A stretch of 64,000 bases of DNA from an uncultured virus (IMG/VR IMGVR_UViG_3300023240_000015). Taxonomy: Duplodnaviria > Heunggongvirae > Uroviricota > Caudoviricetes. The stretch lies in IMG/VR virus record IMGVR_UViG_3300023240_000015, one strand, 5' to 3'. The translations under genes were made by a program, and so were the position numbers. Every line of letters starts with the position of its first letter. Position 1 is the stretch's first letter. The notes under the pieces were generated by a model. That model did no database searches and had not been told where the DNA came from. It saw nothing but the letters and a program-made list of their open reading frames with translations. Below are positions 58,829-64,000 of this stretch, piece after piece.

Positions 58829-59413
58829 ATGTCTGCACATTTTATGAAAAATCCATATCCAATTCACTATACTAGGGATGAGTATAGAAACGAATATCTA
58901 GTATCTCCCGATTGGAAGAAGAAGAGGCTTATTGTATTGGAAAGGGATGAAGTATGTCGAATTTGTGATGTGACCGTTTCACATGATGTTCACCACATAA
59001 CATATGACCGTATTCCGTTCGAGAATTTGGAGACCGATTTAATCGGAATCTGTCGCCCTTGTCATAATAAGATTCATAGCTGGCATCTCTTAACTAAGTG
59101 CCGTAGCGTGAAAAAGATACGTTCACTTATTTCAATGATGAAGACTAAATTCGAGATAGATGATTTATTCATCTCAAAAATGAATGGTTTACCGATAAAT
59201 TCGAAGAAAAAGATGTCGAGTCTCTTTAAGAAGAATGTGCATTCCTTCGAATCTCTTCGTGGGGTTATGGTAACATTTAGAACTTACTTGGACATAAGAG
59301 ACCTAATCAAAACAGCCCGTAAGAAGTTTAAATCAAAGAAGTTGGGGTTTAAGATCAATAAACCACAAAATTCTTTCTTAGGTCATGGTGGATGGAGTAG
59401 AAAAATTCTATAA
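58829..59413 (+). CDS. HNH endonuclease-like protein
   Basis: WKKKR..VLERD..CRIC...VHHITY...ICRPCHNKIH. Confidence 0.85.
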   Translation: MSAHFMKNPYPIHYTRDEYRNEYLVSPDWKKKRLIVLERDEVCRICDVTVSHDVHHITYDRIPFENLETDLIGICRPCHNKIHSWHLLTKCRSVKKIRSLISMMKTKFEIDDLFISKMNGLPINSKKKMSSLFKKNVHSFESLRGVMVTFRTYLDIRDLIKTARKKFKSKKLGFKINKPQNSFLGHGGWSRKIL

Positions 59414-59420
59414 TTAAAAT

Positions 59421-59493
59421 ATCCCTGCCAGCGGATTCTGGACAGATGCCTTCTAAGCAACTAGGGAAGGTTCGACTCCTTCTAGGGATACCA
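59421..59493 (+). tRNA. tRNA-Arg(TCT), atypical D arm
   Basis: ATCCCTG/TAGGGAT stem, loop CT-TCT-AA, GGTTCGACTCC, CCA. Confidence 0.7.
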
Positions 59494-59548
59494 AATGTTA
59501 AATATCGTTTCGGCCCGATGATCTGGTAAACCAGAAGCCGACATTTTT

Positions 59549-59585
59549 GCCGTGGTCGCATAGTGGCCGATTGCACCTGTTTTTT
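59549..59585 (+). pseudogene. Orphan tRNA 5' half (Thr-like)
   Basis: GCCGTGG-TC-GCATAGTGGCCGATTGC-A-CCTGT, with no adjacent 3' half. Confidence 0.55.
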
Positions 59586-59784
59586 TACCTACAGAGTTCG
59601 TCGATTAGTATGTAGGTGGCTGGAATAAACATCGACTCTGACGGAGAATCTGATAGGTCAGAAATAGGTCTGACAATCCGTTGAAGCAACAACAAAAATC
59701 GCGATCAAAATGTTGCTAGGACTTGTAAATTTGAAACTTGCGAACGGCTCGCGTAATCTGGTAAACCAGAAGCCGACTTTTTAC

Positions 59785-59858
59785 GCTTCCTTAGTTCACG
59801 CTGGCTAGAATTCCTCACTTGTAATGAGGGGAAGTCGGTTCGACACCGACAGGAAGCT
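59785..59858 (+). tRNA. tRNA-Thr(TGT)
   Basis: Canonical cloverleaf; CCTCA-CTTGTAA-TGAGG. Confidence 0.9.
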
Positions 59859-60565
59859 CATGATCGATTGCGTTTGCCACTCTTGTTAAGTCTCCTAAAG
59901 TTTGGAGTCAAACTATGACAATTTGGACAAATTAGTTCAAGGTTATCCTCAGAACAATTCAAAGCATCACCGTCAATATGGTTGACCTCCAAAGGAATAG
60001 ATTTGCTAGTTGGGTTAATTTGACTCCAACCACATTTACAACATTTGTTTTCATATTTATCAAAAAGATATCTTCTTACGAATACTTTAATTCGGATAGT
60101 CTTTCCCGTCCACCCATTGATGGACCCATCTTTCCAATTACTAATCAACTCTTGTTGTTTATATTTTCTTGTGCAAATCTGCGAACAAAATTTTCTTGGA
60201 TTTTCCCTCTCGATGAAAGAAAATGAGTCTTTGCAATTCTCACAATTTTTTGTTTTAGTGTTAGTAATTTTTCTTAAATGGTTGTTGAAAGTTGCCGAAC
60301 AAGACCTTGAACAGAAATTATTATCACCAATTTGGCTATTTTGGATAATCCGACTTTCTCCGCAATTTTTACAAATAATAGACTTGGTGAGAGTCTTCGC
60401 TCGTCGTGAACACTCTACGGAACAAAAATCGACCCTTTTTGTCCCTTTCAATCCCCTTCGTGCTAGTGATATACTAACGAAAAAAGGTTTCTTACAATTT
60501 AAGCATTCGCATGGAACTTTTGAGCCGCGAACAACATCTGAAATATTTGGTACGAGCATCTTCAT
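59858..60565 (-). CDS. HNH homing endonuclease with Cys-rich repeats, antisense to the tRNA array
   Basis: FCS..C repeats, LEVNHIDG...NLELICPNCH; start reassigned to the ATG at 60565 after GTAAGTA. Confidence 0.85.
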   Translation of the reverse strand: MKMLVPNISDVVRGSKVPCECLNCKKPFFVSISLARRGLKGTKRVDFCSVECSRRAKTLTKSIICKNCGESRIIQNSQIGDNNFCSRSCSATFNNHLRKITNTKTKNCENCKDSFSFIERENPRKFCSQICTRKYKQQELISNWKDGSINGWTGKTIRIKVFVRRYLFDKYENKCCKCGWSQINPTSKSIPLEVNHIDGDALNCSEDNLELICPNCHSLTPNFRRLNKSGKRNRS

Positions 60566-60608
60566 ACTAATACTTACCCCGATTCCCCGTCTTGGCTCCA
60601 TACAATTT

Positions 60609-60687
60609 GTCGCGGGAGTGAAACGGAATAATAATCCAAGTCTCATAAGCTTTGGGATAACAGGTTCGACTCCTGTCTGCGCCACCA
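60609..60687 (+). tRNA. tRNA-Met(CAT)
   Basis: Loop CT-CAT-AA, GGTTCGACTCC, CCA; one acceptor mismatch. Confidence 0.75.
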
Positions 60688-60713
60688 TTGATAATGATCG
60701 TTTACATTTATAT

Positions 60714-60809
60714 ATGGATAAGGCTAAGGTAGCCGGAAGGACTCCAAATCCTTTGTGTCAAATCGGAAGAAATGACTACGATAAGATTCGATTTCTTATA
60801 TCCATGCCA
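60714..60809 (+). tRNA. tRNA-Trp(CCA) with enlarged variable region
   Basis: ATGGATA/TATCCAT, AAGGA-CTCCAAA-TCCTT, G73, CCA. Confidence 0.75.
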
Positions 60810-60826
60810 TTTCAAAAACTTTATAT

Positions 60827-60913
60827 GTGGTTGCGCAGAAGTCGGAGAGTCTGACCTGCCTTTCAAGCAGTGTCCCTTATGGGAAGCGGGTTCGATTCCC
60901 GTCAGCCATGCCA
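60827..60913 (+). tRNA. tRNA-Glu(TTC) with long variable arm
   Basis: CTGC-CTTTCAA-GCAG, TCCC-ttat-GGGA arm, GGTTCGATTCC, CCA. Confidence 0.7.
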
Positions 60914-60996
60914 TTTCGATACTTTGCCTTAACAATGTGTAGTTATTAGTTTCTAGAAACTATCCGTATGTGTGCATACGGGTTGAATGTTTTTAT

Positions 60997-61073
60997 GGTG
61001 GTATTAGTGTAGTGGTTTCGCACTTCTCTTTGTGAAAGAGACAGGATGATTTCGAATATCATATACCACACCA
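60997..61073 (+). tRNA. tRNA-His(GTG)
   Basis: G-1 encoded, TCTCT-TTGTGAA-AGAGA, A73, CCA. Confidence 0.8.
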
Positions 61074-61076
61074 TTT

Positions 61077-61320
61077 TTCATTAATCTTATCTTGGATAAT
61101 TTGGAAATATTTTAATGACGACAATTCAGTGAATTTCATCTGTTCGGTAGTGTTTATAACACACAATTCTATACCATCCTCGAAACATTTTTTGATTTTC
61201 GCGTATCATTTCTTTGAATATTTAACAATTTAGATTCCCCGTAGATGGGAGAGTAATGAAATATACCATTGATCTCAAAAGCCAAGTCTAATTTTTGGAT
61301 GTAGATATCTAACTCTATCG
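61077..61320 (-). pseudogene. Remnant PD-(D/E)xK (Vsr/DUF559-like) endonuclease
   Basis: IELDIYIQKLDLAFEINGIFHYSPIYG, then a frameshift to CFEDGIELCVIN; no N-terminus. Confidence 0.7.
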
Positions 61321-61341
61321 CTTAGAAAATTTTAGTATTAT

Positions 61342-61412
61342 TCCCTGTAGGTGTATCGGTTGCACATCTGGTTTTGGCCCAGACAGGCGTGGTTCGATTC
61401 CACGACGGGGAG
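61342..61412 (+). tRNA. tRNA-Gln(TTG)
   Basis: TCTGG-TTTTGGC-CCAGA, GGTTCGATTCC. Confidence 0.85.
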
Positions 61413-61426
61413 CATTTTAGATTTTT

Positions 61427-61511
61427 GGGTGATTAAACTGTTAAGGAGGCAGTCGGGATTGTAAACCCCGCTCGTAATGATCGCAGGATTCGATTTCCTG
61501 ATCACCCACCA
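61427..61511 (+). tRNA. tRNA-Tyr(GTA)
   Basis: GGGTGAT/ATCACCC, loop TT-GTA-AA, long variable arm, CCA. Confidence 0.85.
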
Positions 61512-61515
61512 TTTC

Positions 61516-61594
61516 GCGTTGGTATCCGCTTCGGCTTCGAACCGATTGAAACGGTAAAGGACGCATGGGATTTCGAAATTCCCCCGACGCACCA
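61516..61594 (+). tRNA. tRNA-Arg(TCG)-like RNA lacking a conventional D arm
   Basis: GCGTTGG/CCGACGC, TCGG-CTTCGAA-CCGA, T arm, ACCA. Confidence 0.6.
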
Positions 61595-61700
61595 TTTGAA
61601 TAATTTATCTAAACGATAAAGCCTGCACGTTTGAAGGTTCATGCGACCAATGATTACTACCATGTAGAGTCTCGCGAAACTGATCGGATGTATTTTCAAC

Positions 61701-61771
61701 CTCTGTATAATTAAATGGTATAATAAGCCTTTGATAAAGGCTCTTCGTTGGTTCGATTCCAGCTATAGAGA
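61701..61771 (+). tRNA. tRNA-Ile(GAT)
   Basis: AGCCT-TTGATAA-AGGCT, GGTTCGATTCC. Confidence 0.85.
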
Positions 61772-61784
61772 CATAATTTTCTAA

Positions 61785-61862
61785 CCTCCGTTAGCTCACG
61801 ATTGGCAGAGCAAGCTCTTTATAAGAGCGAGGTAGCTGGATCGACGCCAGCACGGAGGACCA
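61785..61862 (+). tRNA. tRNA-Ile(TAT)
   Basis: CCTCCGT/ACGGAGG, GCTC-TTTATAA-GAGC, CCA. Confidence 0.85.
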
Positions 61863-62071
61863 AACATTTTTTGGTGCGTAGGCGAACACAACTCTTCGCC
61901 CACCAAAACATTTTTAACGAGACGGTGCTGCAAGGTTCGATCAGATCATGATCTGTGAAAGACCCCAAGGAACGCACAATTAAAAAGTCTAATATAGTTT
62001 CACGACCTCATGAGGAAGTGTTACGACAATAAACACAGAAGGTTCGAATCCCACTGGATGCACCAATTTAT

Positions 62072-62148
62072 TGCGGTCAGGTGGTCTGGTTGACCATTCA
62101 AGTTTCATAAGCTTGAGAGCTAGGTTCGATTCCTAGGACTCGCTACCA
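62072..62148 (+). tRNA. tRNA-Met(CAT), 1:72 mismatch
   Basis: CAAGT-TTCATAA-GCTTG, GGTTCGATTCC, ACCA. Confidence 0.75.
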
Positions 62149-62174
62149 TTTGTTGAGTAGTCGTAGAAGTAAAA

Positions 62175-62399
62175 ATGATATGGAAGCATGGTGAAACGTT
62201 AAATAACTACACGAGGTTTTTCGAAGAAAAAAACACCGCCTTGCGATATTTTTGCGAGAAAAGAGGCTACAAAGCGTTGATCTTAAATGTGTCTGATAAT
62301 CCAGAATTTAACAAATTTTATAGAAAATATTTGAAACATTTTAATCGCAGGGTAGAGAAGGTGGTAACTCGGGGGTCTCATTCAGTAATCATGATGTGA
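62175..62399 (+). CDS. Small hypothetical ORF or gene remnant; its 3' end runs into a tRNA
   Basis: Coding-like AT-rich spacer. Confidence 0.35.
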   Translation: MIWKHGETLNNYTRFFEEKNTALRYFCEKRGYKALILNVSDNPEFNKFYRKYLKHFNRRVEKVVTRGSHSVIMM

Positions 62400-62447
62400 T
62401 TACTGAATAAGCCCTTTCATCGGATTCGAACGCCGCCCCCGCTACCA
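62346..62447 (+). tRNA. Initiator-like tRNA(CAT) with a 27-nt hairpin insertion in the anticodon loop
   Basis: C1:T72 mismatch, GGG-rich anticodon stem, CTCAT[insert]AA, ACCA. Confidence 0.65.
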
Positions 62448-62534
62448 TTTTTGCTACTATTTAAATTTTAATTTCAGAATAGCTACAAAACGATTCTGTT
62501 GACATCTAGGAAAGACTAGTGCCAATTTAAAAAT

Positions 62535-62609
62535 GGGAGATTAAGTTATGCGGTAAACTTCGGATTTCATAAGTCCAGATAACGGATTCAGACGCCGTAT
62601 CTCCTACCA
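62535..62609 (+). tRNA. tRNA(CAT), Met or lysidine-Ile2 type
   Basis: GGGAGAT/ATCTCCT, GGAT-TTCATAA-GTCC, CCA. Confidence 0.7.
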
Positions 62610-62619
62610 TACATTTTAA

Positions 62620-62699
62620 CGGAAATGGGACTGCTTGGCGTGGTCGCGTGATTTGGGATCACGATATTCAGCGGGATTCGATGGCCCGATTTCCGACCA
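62620..62699 (+). tRNA. tRNA-Pro(TGG)
   Basis: CGGAAAT/ATTTCCG, CGTGA-TTTGGGA-TCACG, CCA. Confidence 0.85.
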
Positions 62700-62917
62700 T
62701 ATGACTTTGGGATTAGTTCGATTCCACCTGTAAAGAACGTTCGTGAAATCCTTTTTGTTTCGTAAACTTTCTGCGCGGTATATGATAGTTGACTAAGTGC
62801 AACAACCCCGCACCTTTTCTGAGTTATGCAGTTGCGATAAAACGCTAAATAGATTGCAAACTCTATGGTGGAAGCTATGGTGAAAGCTGGCAACTTGCTT
62901 TGAAATGTTGTATTTAT

Positions 62918-63002
62918 GCGAGCGTGGCGAAATCGGCAGACGCGCCAGATTTAGGATCTGGTTCCGCAAGGAGTGTGGGTTCAAGTCCCTCCGTTCGCAC
63001 CA
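62918..63002 (+). tRNA. tRNA-Leu(TAG)
   Basis: Canonical class II; CCAGA-TTTAGGA-TCTGG. Confidence 0.93.
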
Positions 63003-63219
63003 AGTCTGGATGGGAATTGGAAACAAGACGGACTTCATAAATGTCTACCTCACCGAATCGTTATTATTTGTGATAATCAAATGACGCAACCCTGTTTGCG
63101 AAAGAGGATAAACCTTAAACAGTTCAATTTATCATACTCCCCGCGCCTCTAAATGTATGCGTAATTCGGGGAGTCTTTTGAGAAATTTGATCACAGAGTT
63201 GTCTCTTAACCATTTATAT

Positions 63220-63299
63220 GTCTCGCTCGCCTAAATAGCTTAATGGCGTTTCCCTTCCAAGGAAAAATAATGAGGGCTGCTAATCCTCGCGGGATACCA
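63220..63299 (+). tRNA. tRNA-Gly(TCC), divergent T loop
   Basis: TTTCC-CTTCCAA-GGAAA, CCA. Confidence 0.7.
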
Positions 63300-63389
63300 A
63301 TTTTGACTGATAGAGTCCTCCCCATCTAAGGGATTTGCCGGAAGGTGGTGGCGATTCAAAGAAAACTGGTTCAGTCGATAATTTAAAAA

Positions 63390-63467
63390 CGCTAAGTGGT
63401 GTAGTTGGAACTCGCACGACATTCTGAAAAAATGAGGGAATCTGTTCGAATCAGATCTTAGCGGCCA
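63390..63467 (+). tRNA. tRNA-Phe(GAA)
   Basis: CGCTAAG/CTTAGCG, CATT-CTGAAAA-AATG, GTTCGAATC. Confidence 0.8.
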
Positions 63468-63503
63468 TTATTCCGCTCGAATTAGAGCATGGAAAAATTT
63501 TAT

Positions 63504-63577
63504 GGGGCATAGCTGTGGTCAGCGGAGAATTCTTGCAAAATTCTTGTCTATGATTTCGATTATCATATGCTCCACCA
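63504..63577 (+). tRNA. tRNA-Ala(TGC), minimal D loop
   Basis: G3:U70, GAATT-CTTGCAA-AATTC, CCA. Confidence 0.8.
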
Positions 63578-63582
63578 TTTAA

Positions 63583-63657
63583 GCGGGTGTCGTATAACGG
63601 CTATTATGGGGCATTGCCTATGCCCAGATGGGAGATCGTCCCTCCCCACCCGCTCCA
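63583..63657 (+). tRNA. tRNA-Gly(GCC)
   Basis: GCGGGTG/CACCCGC, GGGCA-TTGCCTA-TGCCC, U73, CCA. Confidence 0.85.
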
Positions 63658-63662
63658 ATTTT

Positions 63663-63796
63663 AAACATGAGGCGGAAATGTAAATGACGCAGCATTATCG
63701 AAAGAACTCTGGAACATCTACTAGTGATGCGAAATCCATTATTCTTAGAGATGAATCCTCCAAATGCAGGAGTGGGTCCAAATCCCACCATGTTTA
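63663..63796 (+). ncRNA. tRNA-like RNA with a 66-nt expanded anticodon domain
   Basis: AAACATG/CATGTTT, GCG/CGC D stem, GCATT/AATGC, GTGGG-TCCAAAT-CCCAC. Confidence 0.55.
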
Positions 63797-63806
63797 AAGA
63801 ATTTTA

Positions 63807-63882
63807 GTCCTCTGAGGGAGCAGGTGAACCCCAACCTCTGCAAAAGGTTTGTTGCTCGGTTCGATACCGAGAGATGACTCCA
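63807..63882 (+). tRNA. tRNA-Cys(GCA)
   Basis: AACCT-CTGCAAA-AGGTT, GGTTCGATACC, U73, CCA. Confidence 0.85.
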
Positions 63883-63924
63883 CTTTTTAATTGACAATAT
63901 CTGAAATTTTGATATCTTCACCCT

Positions 63925-64000
63925 ATGAAGAAAATTATTGCAAACTTGGTGAGTTTTATATTTGAAATGATCGACCTTATATTTTGGTGTCTGTTTTTGT
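63925..64000 (+). CDS. Partial hydrophobic ORF running off the window
   Basis: ATG downstream of a TTGACA promoter at 63891. Confidence 0.5.
   Translation, partial: MKKIIANLVSFIFEMIDLIFWCLFL

Follow-up and report, generated by a model that had tools for sequence, protein, structure and literature searches.

Here we report that positions 61516-61594 (+) of a 64,000-nucleotide (nt) stretch of DNA from an uncultured virus (IMG/VR record IMGVR_UViG_3300023240_000015, Caudoviricetes; the whole stretch is called the window below) probably encode an elongator tRNA-Arg(UCG) of a tailed phage, a working tRNA whose secondary structure is not a cloverleaf. The gene consists of an acceptor stem, a hairpin carrying the anticodon UCG, a T arm and an encoded ACCA, without a D hairpin, and its D-loop element stands 3′ of the anticodon arm. 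The gene is one of a large family found in phages of Actinomycetota, with further copies in genomes of Bacteroidota, Verrucomicrobiota and Bacillota, and covariation within this family backs four helices, including a new helix of three base pairs (bp), here called helix H, that encloses the anticodon arm. To our knowledge, the cloverleaf is regarded as universal for bacterial and phage tRNAs. A family of phage tRNAs with a strand-swapped D domain is apparently undescribed; our literature search found no description of the rewired topology, with most subscription journals and supplements lying outside its coverage.

Architecture of the gene

From 5′ to 3′, the gene is built from the following elements.

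61516-61522 (+): 5′ strand of the acceptor stem, GCGTTGG, pairing with 61584-61590; 7/7 pairs covary in the family
61523-61525 (+): connector U8 A9 U10, with TA invariant in the BLAST-derived set
61526-61528 (+): 5′ strand of helix H, CCG, pairing with 61552-61554 and running toward the anticodon stem, in the place of D-stem strand 23-25
61529 (+): lone C, the position-26 counterpart, linking helix H to the anticodon stem
61530-61546 (+): anticodon arm, stem UUCGG/CCGAU and loop CUUCGAA; the outer pair is U.U and the four inner pairs covary
61537-61539 (+): anticodon UCG within the CU-NNN-AA loop
61547-61551 (+): linker UGAAA, which joins the anticodon stem to helix H at its 3′ strand
61552-61554 (+): 3′ strand of helix H, CGG; it leads away from the anticodon stem and occupies the place of D-stem strand 10-12
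61555-61566 (+): D-loop counterpart and connector, UAA-A-GG-A-CGCAU; GG 61559-61560 corresponds to G18 G19 and A 61561 to position 20
61567-61583 (+): T arm GGGAU/UUCGAAA/UUCCC, with four pairs and a U.U in the window copy; 5/5 pairs covary in the family
61584-61594 (+): 3′ strand of the acceptor stem, CCGACGC, discriminator A 61591 and encoded CCA 61592-61594

Three arms thus surround the single junction of the RNA: acceptor stem, T arm and a long arm composed of the 3-bp helix H, one C opposite a 5-nt linker and a five-layer anticodon stem. Helix H is formed by nt 11-13 with the three nt just 5′ of a conserved UAA, and reads CCG:CGG in the window copy. Much of the remainder is that of a tRNA: a 7-bp acceptor stem (GCGTTGG/CCGACGC, one pair being G.U) with discriminator and CCA, a T arm, and a 7-nt anticodon loop with U33 and a purine at position 37. 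The D arm and the variable region are where the gene departs. Just 6 nt separate U8 A9 from the anticodon stem, a stretch without any hairpin in the consensus structure, while the variable region, instead of the short 4-5 nt, spans 20 nt from the anticodon stem to the T stem and holds both the 3′ strand of helix H and the GG. The 21-nt segment between the hairpin TCGG-CTTCGAA-CCGA and the T arm is TTGAAACGGTAAAGGACGCAT. A preliminary description, prepared from the letters of the window, had set out this layout of acceptor, UCG hairpin, T arm and ACCA on the + strand, and the sequence reads as described there.

The gene starts 4 nt 3′ of a tRNA-Tyr gene (61427-61511) within a same-strand tRNA cluster, and both genes encode CCA. 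The window, with a GC content of about 35%, has open reading frames (ORFs) for a DNA helicase, a portal protein, a head maturation protease, a major head protein, a baseplate wedge subunit and HNH endonucleases; since it encodes portal, head, protease, baseplate and helicase proteins, we assign it to a tailed phage.

A large family of related genes

A megablast search of the tRNA cluster against phages gave no match, and an exact-word scan of IMG/VR returned two contigs with identical copies, which are uninformative for covariation. A sensitive BLAST search of positions 61300-62200 against GenBank phages gave a 56-nt match of 87.5% identity in Streptomyces phage TunaTartare, where the copy sits in an unannotated gap of the phage's tRNA cluster and has the same layout as the window copy. 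Its acceptor stem is GCCCTAG/CTGGGGC and its hairpin stem CTGG/CCAG as against TCGG/CCGA in the window, so that two hairpin pairs have changed on both sides; conserved between the two copies are TATCCGCT and TTGAAACGGTAA-N-GGACGCAT. BLAST with the TunaTartare copy yielded 20 phage records (17 Streptomyces and 3 Microbacterium), most of them unannotated at the site, and the loop triplets across the BLAST-found copies include TCG, ACG, TCT, TAT and CAT.

From eight of these sequences we built a covariance model, R1, with four helices (acceptor, H, anticodon and T), by which the remaining copies were realigned; the seed was narrowed to eight since a MAFFT alignment of the first 11 copies misplaced the Francob type. 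The window copy scores 90.5 bits with R1 (E ~3e-26), far above what chance would give. The range for family members is 46.6-95.8 bits, whereas no ordinary tRNA exceeds 29.5 bits, be it in the loci or in five complete phage genomes. By this model Mildred21 carries four copies (TCG, GAT, ACG and TCT), Zooman two and the window one.

Further members came from scans with a 38-position pattern that fixes only TA[A/T], one C, CT..AA, TTGAAA, TAA and a G. In IMG/VR it gave at least 120 matches, and among the 80 loci listed, 76 hold 79 strong copies (71-93 bits). In bacterial genomes, 5 true members were found among the 80 loci listed and the other 75 are chance matches, so the pattern alone is not diagnostic in large databases. 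The bacterial members belong to Pedobacter nyackensis, two Verrucomicrobium isolates, a Proteobacteria metagenome-assembled genome (MAG) and an Erysipelotrichaceae MAG, with one or two copies per genome. The Verrucomicrobium and Erysipelotrichaceae copies lie in dense tRNA arrays (4-8 tRNAs called by ARAGORN per 3 kb); the Pedobacter copy adjoins one canonical tRNA-Ile and is identical to a copy on an IMG/VR contig; at the Proteobacteria MAG locus ARAGORN calls no tRNA. Pooling the Streptomyces and Microbacterium phages, the IMG/VR contigs and the few bacterial tRNA arrays gave an alignment, A4, of 93 copies, 81 of them distinct. Homologues with compensatory changes, on which the preliminary description had staked its proposal, are therefore abundant.

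Covariation of the four helices

Across the 81 distinct sequences of A4, 93.8% of the cells are paired, compared with 57.5% in shuffles and at most 48.3% when the partner is slid by one column, and 20/20 pairs vary on both strands. Helix H shows 100% pairing over its cells, with two-sided changes at each of the three pairs: the first is CG in 41, AU in 32, GC in 4 and UA in 4 sequences, the second CG in 46, GC in 17, UA in 14 and AU in 3, and the third CG in 58, GC in 19, UA in 2 and AU in 1. Whole-helix variants include CCG:CGG (the window and the TunaTartare type), CGC:GCG (Francob type), ACC:GGU (A3Wally type) and CGA:UCG (the second Zooman copy). The T stem is paired in 98.8% of its cells in the family, and the outer pair of the anticodon stem is U.U in 74/80 members, C-G in 3/80 and A-U in 3/80.

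As A4 was fitted to R1, the result was checked in three further ways, by fixed offsets, RNAalifold and mutual information. Counting at fixed offsets and hence free of any alignment, 62 of the 66 distinct viral pattern matches have 3/3 Watson-Crick pairs in helix H together with 4/4 in the anticodon stem, whereas shuffling the H partners gives a mean of 11.7 and a maximum of 21; the fully paired H sequences among these matches are of 14 different kinds. Both helices are intact in just 5 of the 80 listed matches in bacterial genomes, which indicates that the pattern by itself imposes no pairing. RNAalifold independently predicts the same four helices, and in a mutual-information scan with average-product correction the top 16 column pairs all fall within them. 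The rewired, tRNA-Arg(UCG)-like RNA with its D-loop element 3′ of the anticodon arm, as put forward in the preliminary description, is thus supported by covariation across the family. A further pairing that we considered, of A9-U10 with the A-U before the T stem, was dropped, as six members with A10 keep the same tail.

Several unpaired positions are also constant. The C before the anticodon stem is present in 11/11 BLAST-derived members and in two divergent copies (loci L022 and L031), being fixed elsewhere by the scan pattern. Position 10 is U in 74/80 parsed members and A in 6/80, the pattern admitting A or T only. The UGAAA linker is kept in the window, TunaTartare, Mildred21, A3Wally and Zooman copies, and other linkers occur in Francob-type copies, L022 and L031.

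The D-loop counterpart and the identity nucleotides

Downstream of helix H, family members have UAA, 1-2 nt, GG, one nt and 3-5 nt (mostly YACAU) before the T stem. The anticodons of the 80 parsed members (one of the 81 sequences is unparsable by the GG-N rule) fall into an Arg class (ACG 30, UCU 14, UCG 5 and CCU 5) and an Ile/CAU class (GAU 11, CAU 9 and UAU 6); no other anticodon classes occur among them, though the scan pattern would also have admitted Thr, Lys, Asn and Met loops. Directly after GG stands A in 54/54 members with Arg anticodons and U in 25/26 members of the Ile/CAU class, the exception being C, and the covariation of this base with anticodon nucleotide 35 is the strongest outside the helices in the mutual-information scan. 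The discriminator is A in 24, G in 23 and U in 7 members of the Arg class, and A in 26/26 of the Ile/CAU class. According to Table 1 of Giege & Eriani 2023, a source available to us in part, the bacterial Arg identity set comprises A20, C35, U/G36 and A/G/U73, and the bacterial Ile set U20, A73, the anticodon and others. Because the base after GG tracks the anticodon class and matches these published A20/U20 sets, we read GG-N as the counterpart of G18-G19-N20. In its identity nucleotides the family follows the rules of two synthetases.

This assignment bears on two remarks of the preliminary description. It had pointed to a D-loop-like GGTAAA and a GGA; a D-loop element is indeed present in this segment, but the CGG within it is a strand of helix H, and the GGA is the counterpart of G18 G19 A20 rather than a pairing strand. 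It had also called a UCG anticodon unusual for bacteria, a remark of little relevance here, as the family bears ACG, UCG, UCU, CCU, GAU, UAU and CAU anticodons and the phage uses the codon CGA heavily.

At the putative elbow, the second G faces T-loop position 56 as G-C in 86/87 cases and A-U in 1/87, with 0 mismatches, and three Verrucomicrobium copies have A-G instead of G-U at 18/55. These are few events and count only as consistent with an elbow contact. The Verrucomicrobium copies (L200 90-165 and 265-340 (-); L185 114-189; L283 1501-1576) have AG in the place of GG and a T loop UGCAAAU/UGCAAGU instead of UUCRANY, which could be a coordinated change at the 18/55 tertiary contact.

Standard scanners and annotation

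The expectation that standard scanners would miss the gene was borne out by both ARAGORN and the Rfam tRNA model. The 12 tRNAs that ARAGORN reports for the window all lie on the + strand, within 59785-63882, and none of them is at 61516-61594. Rfam at the gathering score gives four tRNA matches in the window and none at the locus, and at E<=10 over positions 59500-64000 its 20 matches, to families of any kind, include 0 that overlap the locus. Across family loci, ARAGORN makes a call at the member's position in 0/60 cases, though neighbouring tRNAs are called. In a small, permissive 20-locus search with the Rfam tRNA family RF00005, 7 members reach at least 29 bits (the gathering score), 8 lie below it (22.3-27.6 bits) and 5 are unlisted at E<=1.

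Existing annotation at family loci is varied. In GenBank the Mildred21 copy (L010 3001-3076) is labelled tRNA-Phe(gaa) and the Yaboi copy (L013 301-379) tRNA-Val(aac); by the family structure, the former carries UCG and the latter UCU, both Arg. In Enygma (L012 74-147) the adjoining gene is annotated 'tRNA-OTHER ?(Thr|Tyr)(gt)'.

A possible fold and its function

Putting the helices and the conserved unpaired segments together, we propose how such an RNA could act as a tRNA. Helix H would substitute for the D stem and stack on the anticodon stem, and helix H, a possible U.U, a C.U layer and the five-layer anticodon stem would make up about ten layers, much as D stem, position 26 and anticodon stem together do in an ordinary tRNA; given this matching layer count, the distance from anticodon to elbow could be preserved. 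The 5′ strand of H would enter the anticodon stem via one C, as D-stem strand 22-25 does via position 26, and its 3′ strand would continue into UAA..GG-N, as strand 10-13 does into A14..G18 G19 N20. The strand leaving H toward the elbow would thereby present counterparts of A14, R15, G18, G19 and N20 that can dock on an ordinary T loop; U8 is present, and an A15-U48-like pair could form between the U preceding the T stem and the second A of UAA. In effect, segment 10-21 would have been relocated behind segment 22-48, turning the order A-B-C-D into A-C-B-D, an order in which an L shape should still be able to form.

The RNA would be made from the phage tRNA cluster with its CCA encoded, like that of the neighbouring tRNA-Tyr, and the host arginyl-tRNA synthetase (ArgRS) would charge it via the A20 counterpart, C35, G36 and A73. 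As tRNA-Arg(UCG) it would read CGA (and CGG). In 48 long ORFs of the window, the Arg codons (n=596) are AGA 273, CGA 150, CGT 76, AGG 41, CGC 30 and CGG 26, so that CGA, the cognate codon of UCG, is the second most used.

A number of points weigh against this proposal. The reading as a functional tRNA is drawn entirely from conservation patterns, and it is by sequence logic that we arrive at the stacking, at counterparts of U8-A14 and A15-U48 and at the L shape. The 24 public runs listed for this DNA are all of metagenomic DNA, with no RNA run among them. The minimum free energy (MFE) fold of the window copy (-21.4 kcal/mol, z = -0.14 against shuffles) uses another inner hairpin, ACCG/CGGU, and the proposed structure, at -19.5 kcal/mol, lies about 2 kcal/mol above it. 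The window copy itself deviates from the family in the U.U at its inner T-stem pair, and its T loop UUCGAAA is seen once among the 80 parsed members. Helix H has just 3 bp, and the compensatory 19-56 change occurs in a single sequence. In the large set, moreover, conservation of the letters fixed by the scan pattern (TA[A/T], C, CU..AA, UUGAAA, UAA and G) is partly by construction, the BLAST-derived set being the only one unbiased in this respect. Finally, because canonical tRNAs of the same anticodon adjoin some members, the rewired form is not always needed for anticodon supply.

The redundancy just mentioned is seen as a canonical and a rewired tRNA of the same anticodon side by side in Zooman (Arg-ACG, L015 150-222 and 294-369) and on an IMG/VR contig (Ile-GAU, L069 114-190 and 207-279). 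Phages may keep the rewired topology to escape factors that recognise a normal D arm, be it the tRNA-targeting defences of the host or the phage's own attack on host tRNAs; such escape from tRNA-recognising factors as a second role is speculation on our part, suggested by the redundancy and the altered D region.

Alternative readings

The alternative that survives best, although we consider it unlikely, is a tRNA-like RNA outside translation, either a decoy or sponge directed at a host nuclease that targets tRNAs, at a modification enzyme or at an aminoacyl-tRNA synthetase, or a recombination or homing site tied to the nearby HNH genes. The adjoining canonical tRNAs of the same anticodon speak for it, as do HNH or endonuclease VII genes that end 1-7 nt upstream of the copies in TunaTartare, Mildred21 and A3Wally. 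There is no evident reason, however, why a decoy should combine a covarying 7-bp acceptor stem, fitting discriminators, an A20/U20 counterpart matched to the anticodon, a 7-nt anticodon loop of canonical form and a CCA that is encoded or can be added, and the demand for CGA codons fits decoding. The upstream endonuclease genes lie at L003 985-1494 (TunaTartare), L010 2565-2999 (Mildred21) and L014 1-288 (A3Wally), and in the window an HNH endonuclease ORF (58829-59413) heads the tRNA cluster; the rewired tRNA may travel with a homing endonuclease.

A different wiring, in which TCC (nt 10-12) pairs with GGA as the D stem and GGTAAA forms the D loop, was part of the preliminary description and is now very hard to uphold. 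The pairing can be drawn in the window copy and in other CCG-type copies, but Francob-type (UCG) and A3Wally-type (UAC) copies are unable to form it. Over the 81 distinct members, 63.9% of its cells are paired compared with 64.0% in shuffles, 297 of 500 shuffles being at least as high, and this absence of a covariation signal stands against the complete and covarying pairing of the competing helix H.

We likewise see next to no room for an ordinary cloverleaf tRNA with another anticodon, be it Phe gaa, Val aac or the UGA (Ser) loop that the MFE fold suggests, even though the GenBank labels of Phe and Val point the same way. The UUGAAA segment is constant, while the hairpin triplet varies in step with the identity nucleotides. 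Substitutions in TunaTartare break ACCG/CGGU, the hairpin of the MFE fold, and find their compensation in the UCG arm. No D hairpin can be drawn, and ARAGORN makes no call at the members' positions in the 60 loci. A decayed tRNA pseudogene or a chance tRNA-like sequence, which might be suspected from the missing scanner calls and the unremarkable fold z-score, is scarcely credible in view of 81 distinct sequences from phages of several host phyla, covariation in four helices and conserved unpaired segments.

Comparison with known tRNAs and tRNA-like RNAs

With canonical class I tRNA-Arg and tRNA-Ile (RF00005) the family shares the 7-bp acceptor stem, the discriminator and CCA, the 5-bp T stem with its UUCRANY loop, the five-layer anticodon stem with a CU-NNN-AA loop, U8, and a GG able to meet the T loop, as well as the identity nucleotides A20, C35 and A/G/U73 for Arg and U20 and A73 for Ile. 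It differs from them in having no D hairpin, the counterpart of the D stem being a 3-bp long-range helix around the anticodon arm; in the position of its D-loop counterpart, which lies 3′ of helix H and runs directly into the T stem; and in its junction, which is three-way instead of four-way. The window copy shows the features of this strand-swapped family, as it carries helix H and the segment UAA-A-GG-A with a UCG anticodon and is recognised by R1 at the score given above (90.5 bits).

The D-armless tRNAs of metazoan mitochondria (such as mt-tRNA-Ser(AGY/UCU)) are the nearest analogues and resemble the family in lacking a D hairpin and in their short connector between acceptor and anticodon arms. 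Judging from the parts of the sources available to us, L1 connectors of D-armless mitochondrial tRNAs measure 5-12 nt (Salinas-Giege et al. 2015), and the contact between D and T loops is lost in these forms, which take a Y or boomerang shape (Edelmann et al. 2024; Krahn et al. 2020). By comparison with these accounts, the phage family has retained a T loop of canonical form, along with a counterpart of GG-N20 and a substitute for the D stem. Its members, moreover, come from bacterial viruses and from tRNA arrays of bacteria rather than from organelles. The window copy, with its GG, its canonical UUCGAAA T loop and its setting outside any organelle genome, is thus not of the mitochondrial type.

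The non-canonical tRNAs treated by Krahn, Fischer and Soll 2020 are tRNA-Sec, selC* tRNA-Cys, allo-tRNA (8/4 and 9/3), tRNA-Pyl and the mitochondrial forms, and phages go unmentioned in the part of that review available to us. On the same partial basis, tRNA-Sec, selC*, allo-tRNA and tRNA-Pyl are comparable to the family as natural tRNAs that depart from the 7/5 cloverleaf and are poorly handled by standard scanners; they alter the lengths of stems and loops only and keep the order of the arms, whereas the phage family alters the order of segments. Another recent analogue is the set of bacterial tRNA mimics (skipping-rope, DUF2693-FD and salivarius-1; Wang et al., bioRxiv 2026), which share an L-shaped, tRNA-like architecture reached by other connectivity. 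In the accessible portion of that preprint, their function is regulatory or unknown and they are not described as decoders; in contrast to them, the window locus combines a complete acceptor stem and CCA with an anticodon loop and the identity nucleotides of a synthetase, and it has no Rfam match.

Other elements of the tRNA cluster

By a T-arm motif scan and reading of the sequence, we found four more tRNA-like genes in the cluster that ARAGORN leaves uncalled, with good acceptor stems, T arms and encoded CCA. They are listed here with one weak Rfam match.

59421-59493 (+): Arg(UCU)-like, with an odd D region (T-arm motif scan, reading)
60716-60810 (+): Trp(CCA)-like, with a variable region of about 28 nt (T-arm motif scan, reading)
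60829-60907 (+): Glu(UUC)-like, with a long variable arm (Rfam tRNA-Sec at 22.9 bits, below threshold)
62620-62700 (+): Pro(UGG)-like (T-arm motif scan, reading)
63137-63174 (+): weak match to the Rfam abiF RNA motif, between tRNA-Leu and tRNA-Phe (25.6 bits against a gathering score of 37, E 0.21)

A further oddity stands beside two rewired tRNAs on an IMG/VR contig (L004 507-575 (-), the same as L040 333-394 (-)). An anticodon arm of Leu(UAA) type can be recognised in this tRNA-like sequence of about 66 nt, together with a variable hairpin and a T arm, but no evident D arm or clean acceptor stem; it scores 28-30 bits with R1.

Implications

In summary, the family departs from other tRNAs in strand order, yet apparently retains all of their functional contacts. 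In its widest form, our proposal is that it represents the first natural non-mitochondrial class of tRNAs that departs from cloverleaf connectivity and yet works in bacterial translation: widespread and phage-borne, with the 5′ half of the D arm (a stem strand and the G18-G19-N20 loop) placed behind the anticodon arm, charged by the host ArgRS or isoleucyl-tRNA synthetase, and kept, often beside a canonical copy of the same anticodon, because it goes unseen by factors that read a normal D arm or elbow, be they host defences that cleave or modify tRNAs or the phage's own attack on host tRNAs. Taken as a whole, this is a tentative and rather doubtful proposition, well short of the confidence that we place in a working tRNA-Arg(UCG) at the window locus. 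If these RNAs are charged and used, translation would require the L shape and not the connectivity of the cloverleaf, and counts of phage tRNAs as well as analyses of codon usage would overlook a class of Arg and Ile tRNAs. Recognition of A20 by ArgRS would become open to study in a different backbone context, and engineered tRNAs would gain a natural scaffold. The family would then also be a possible example of tRNA-targeting immunity shaping the tRNAs of phages.

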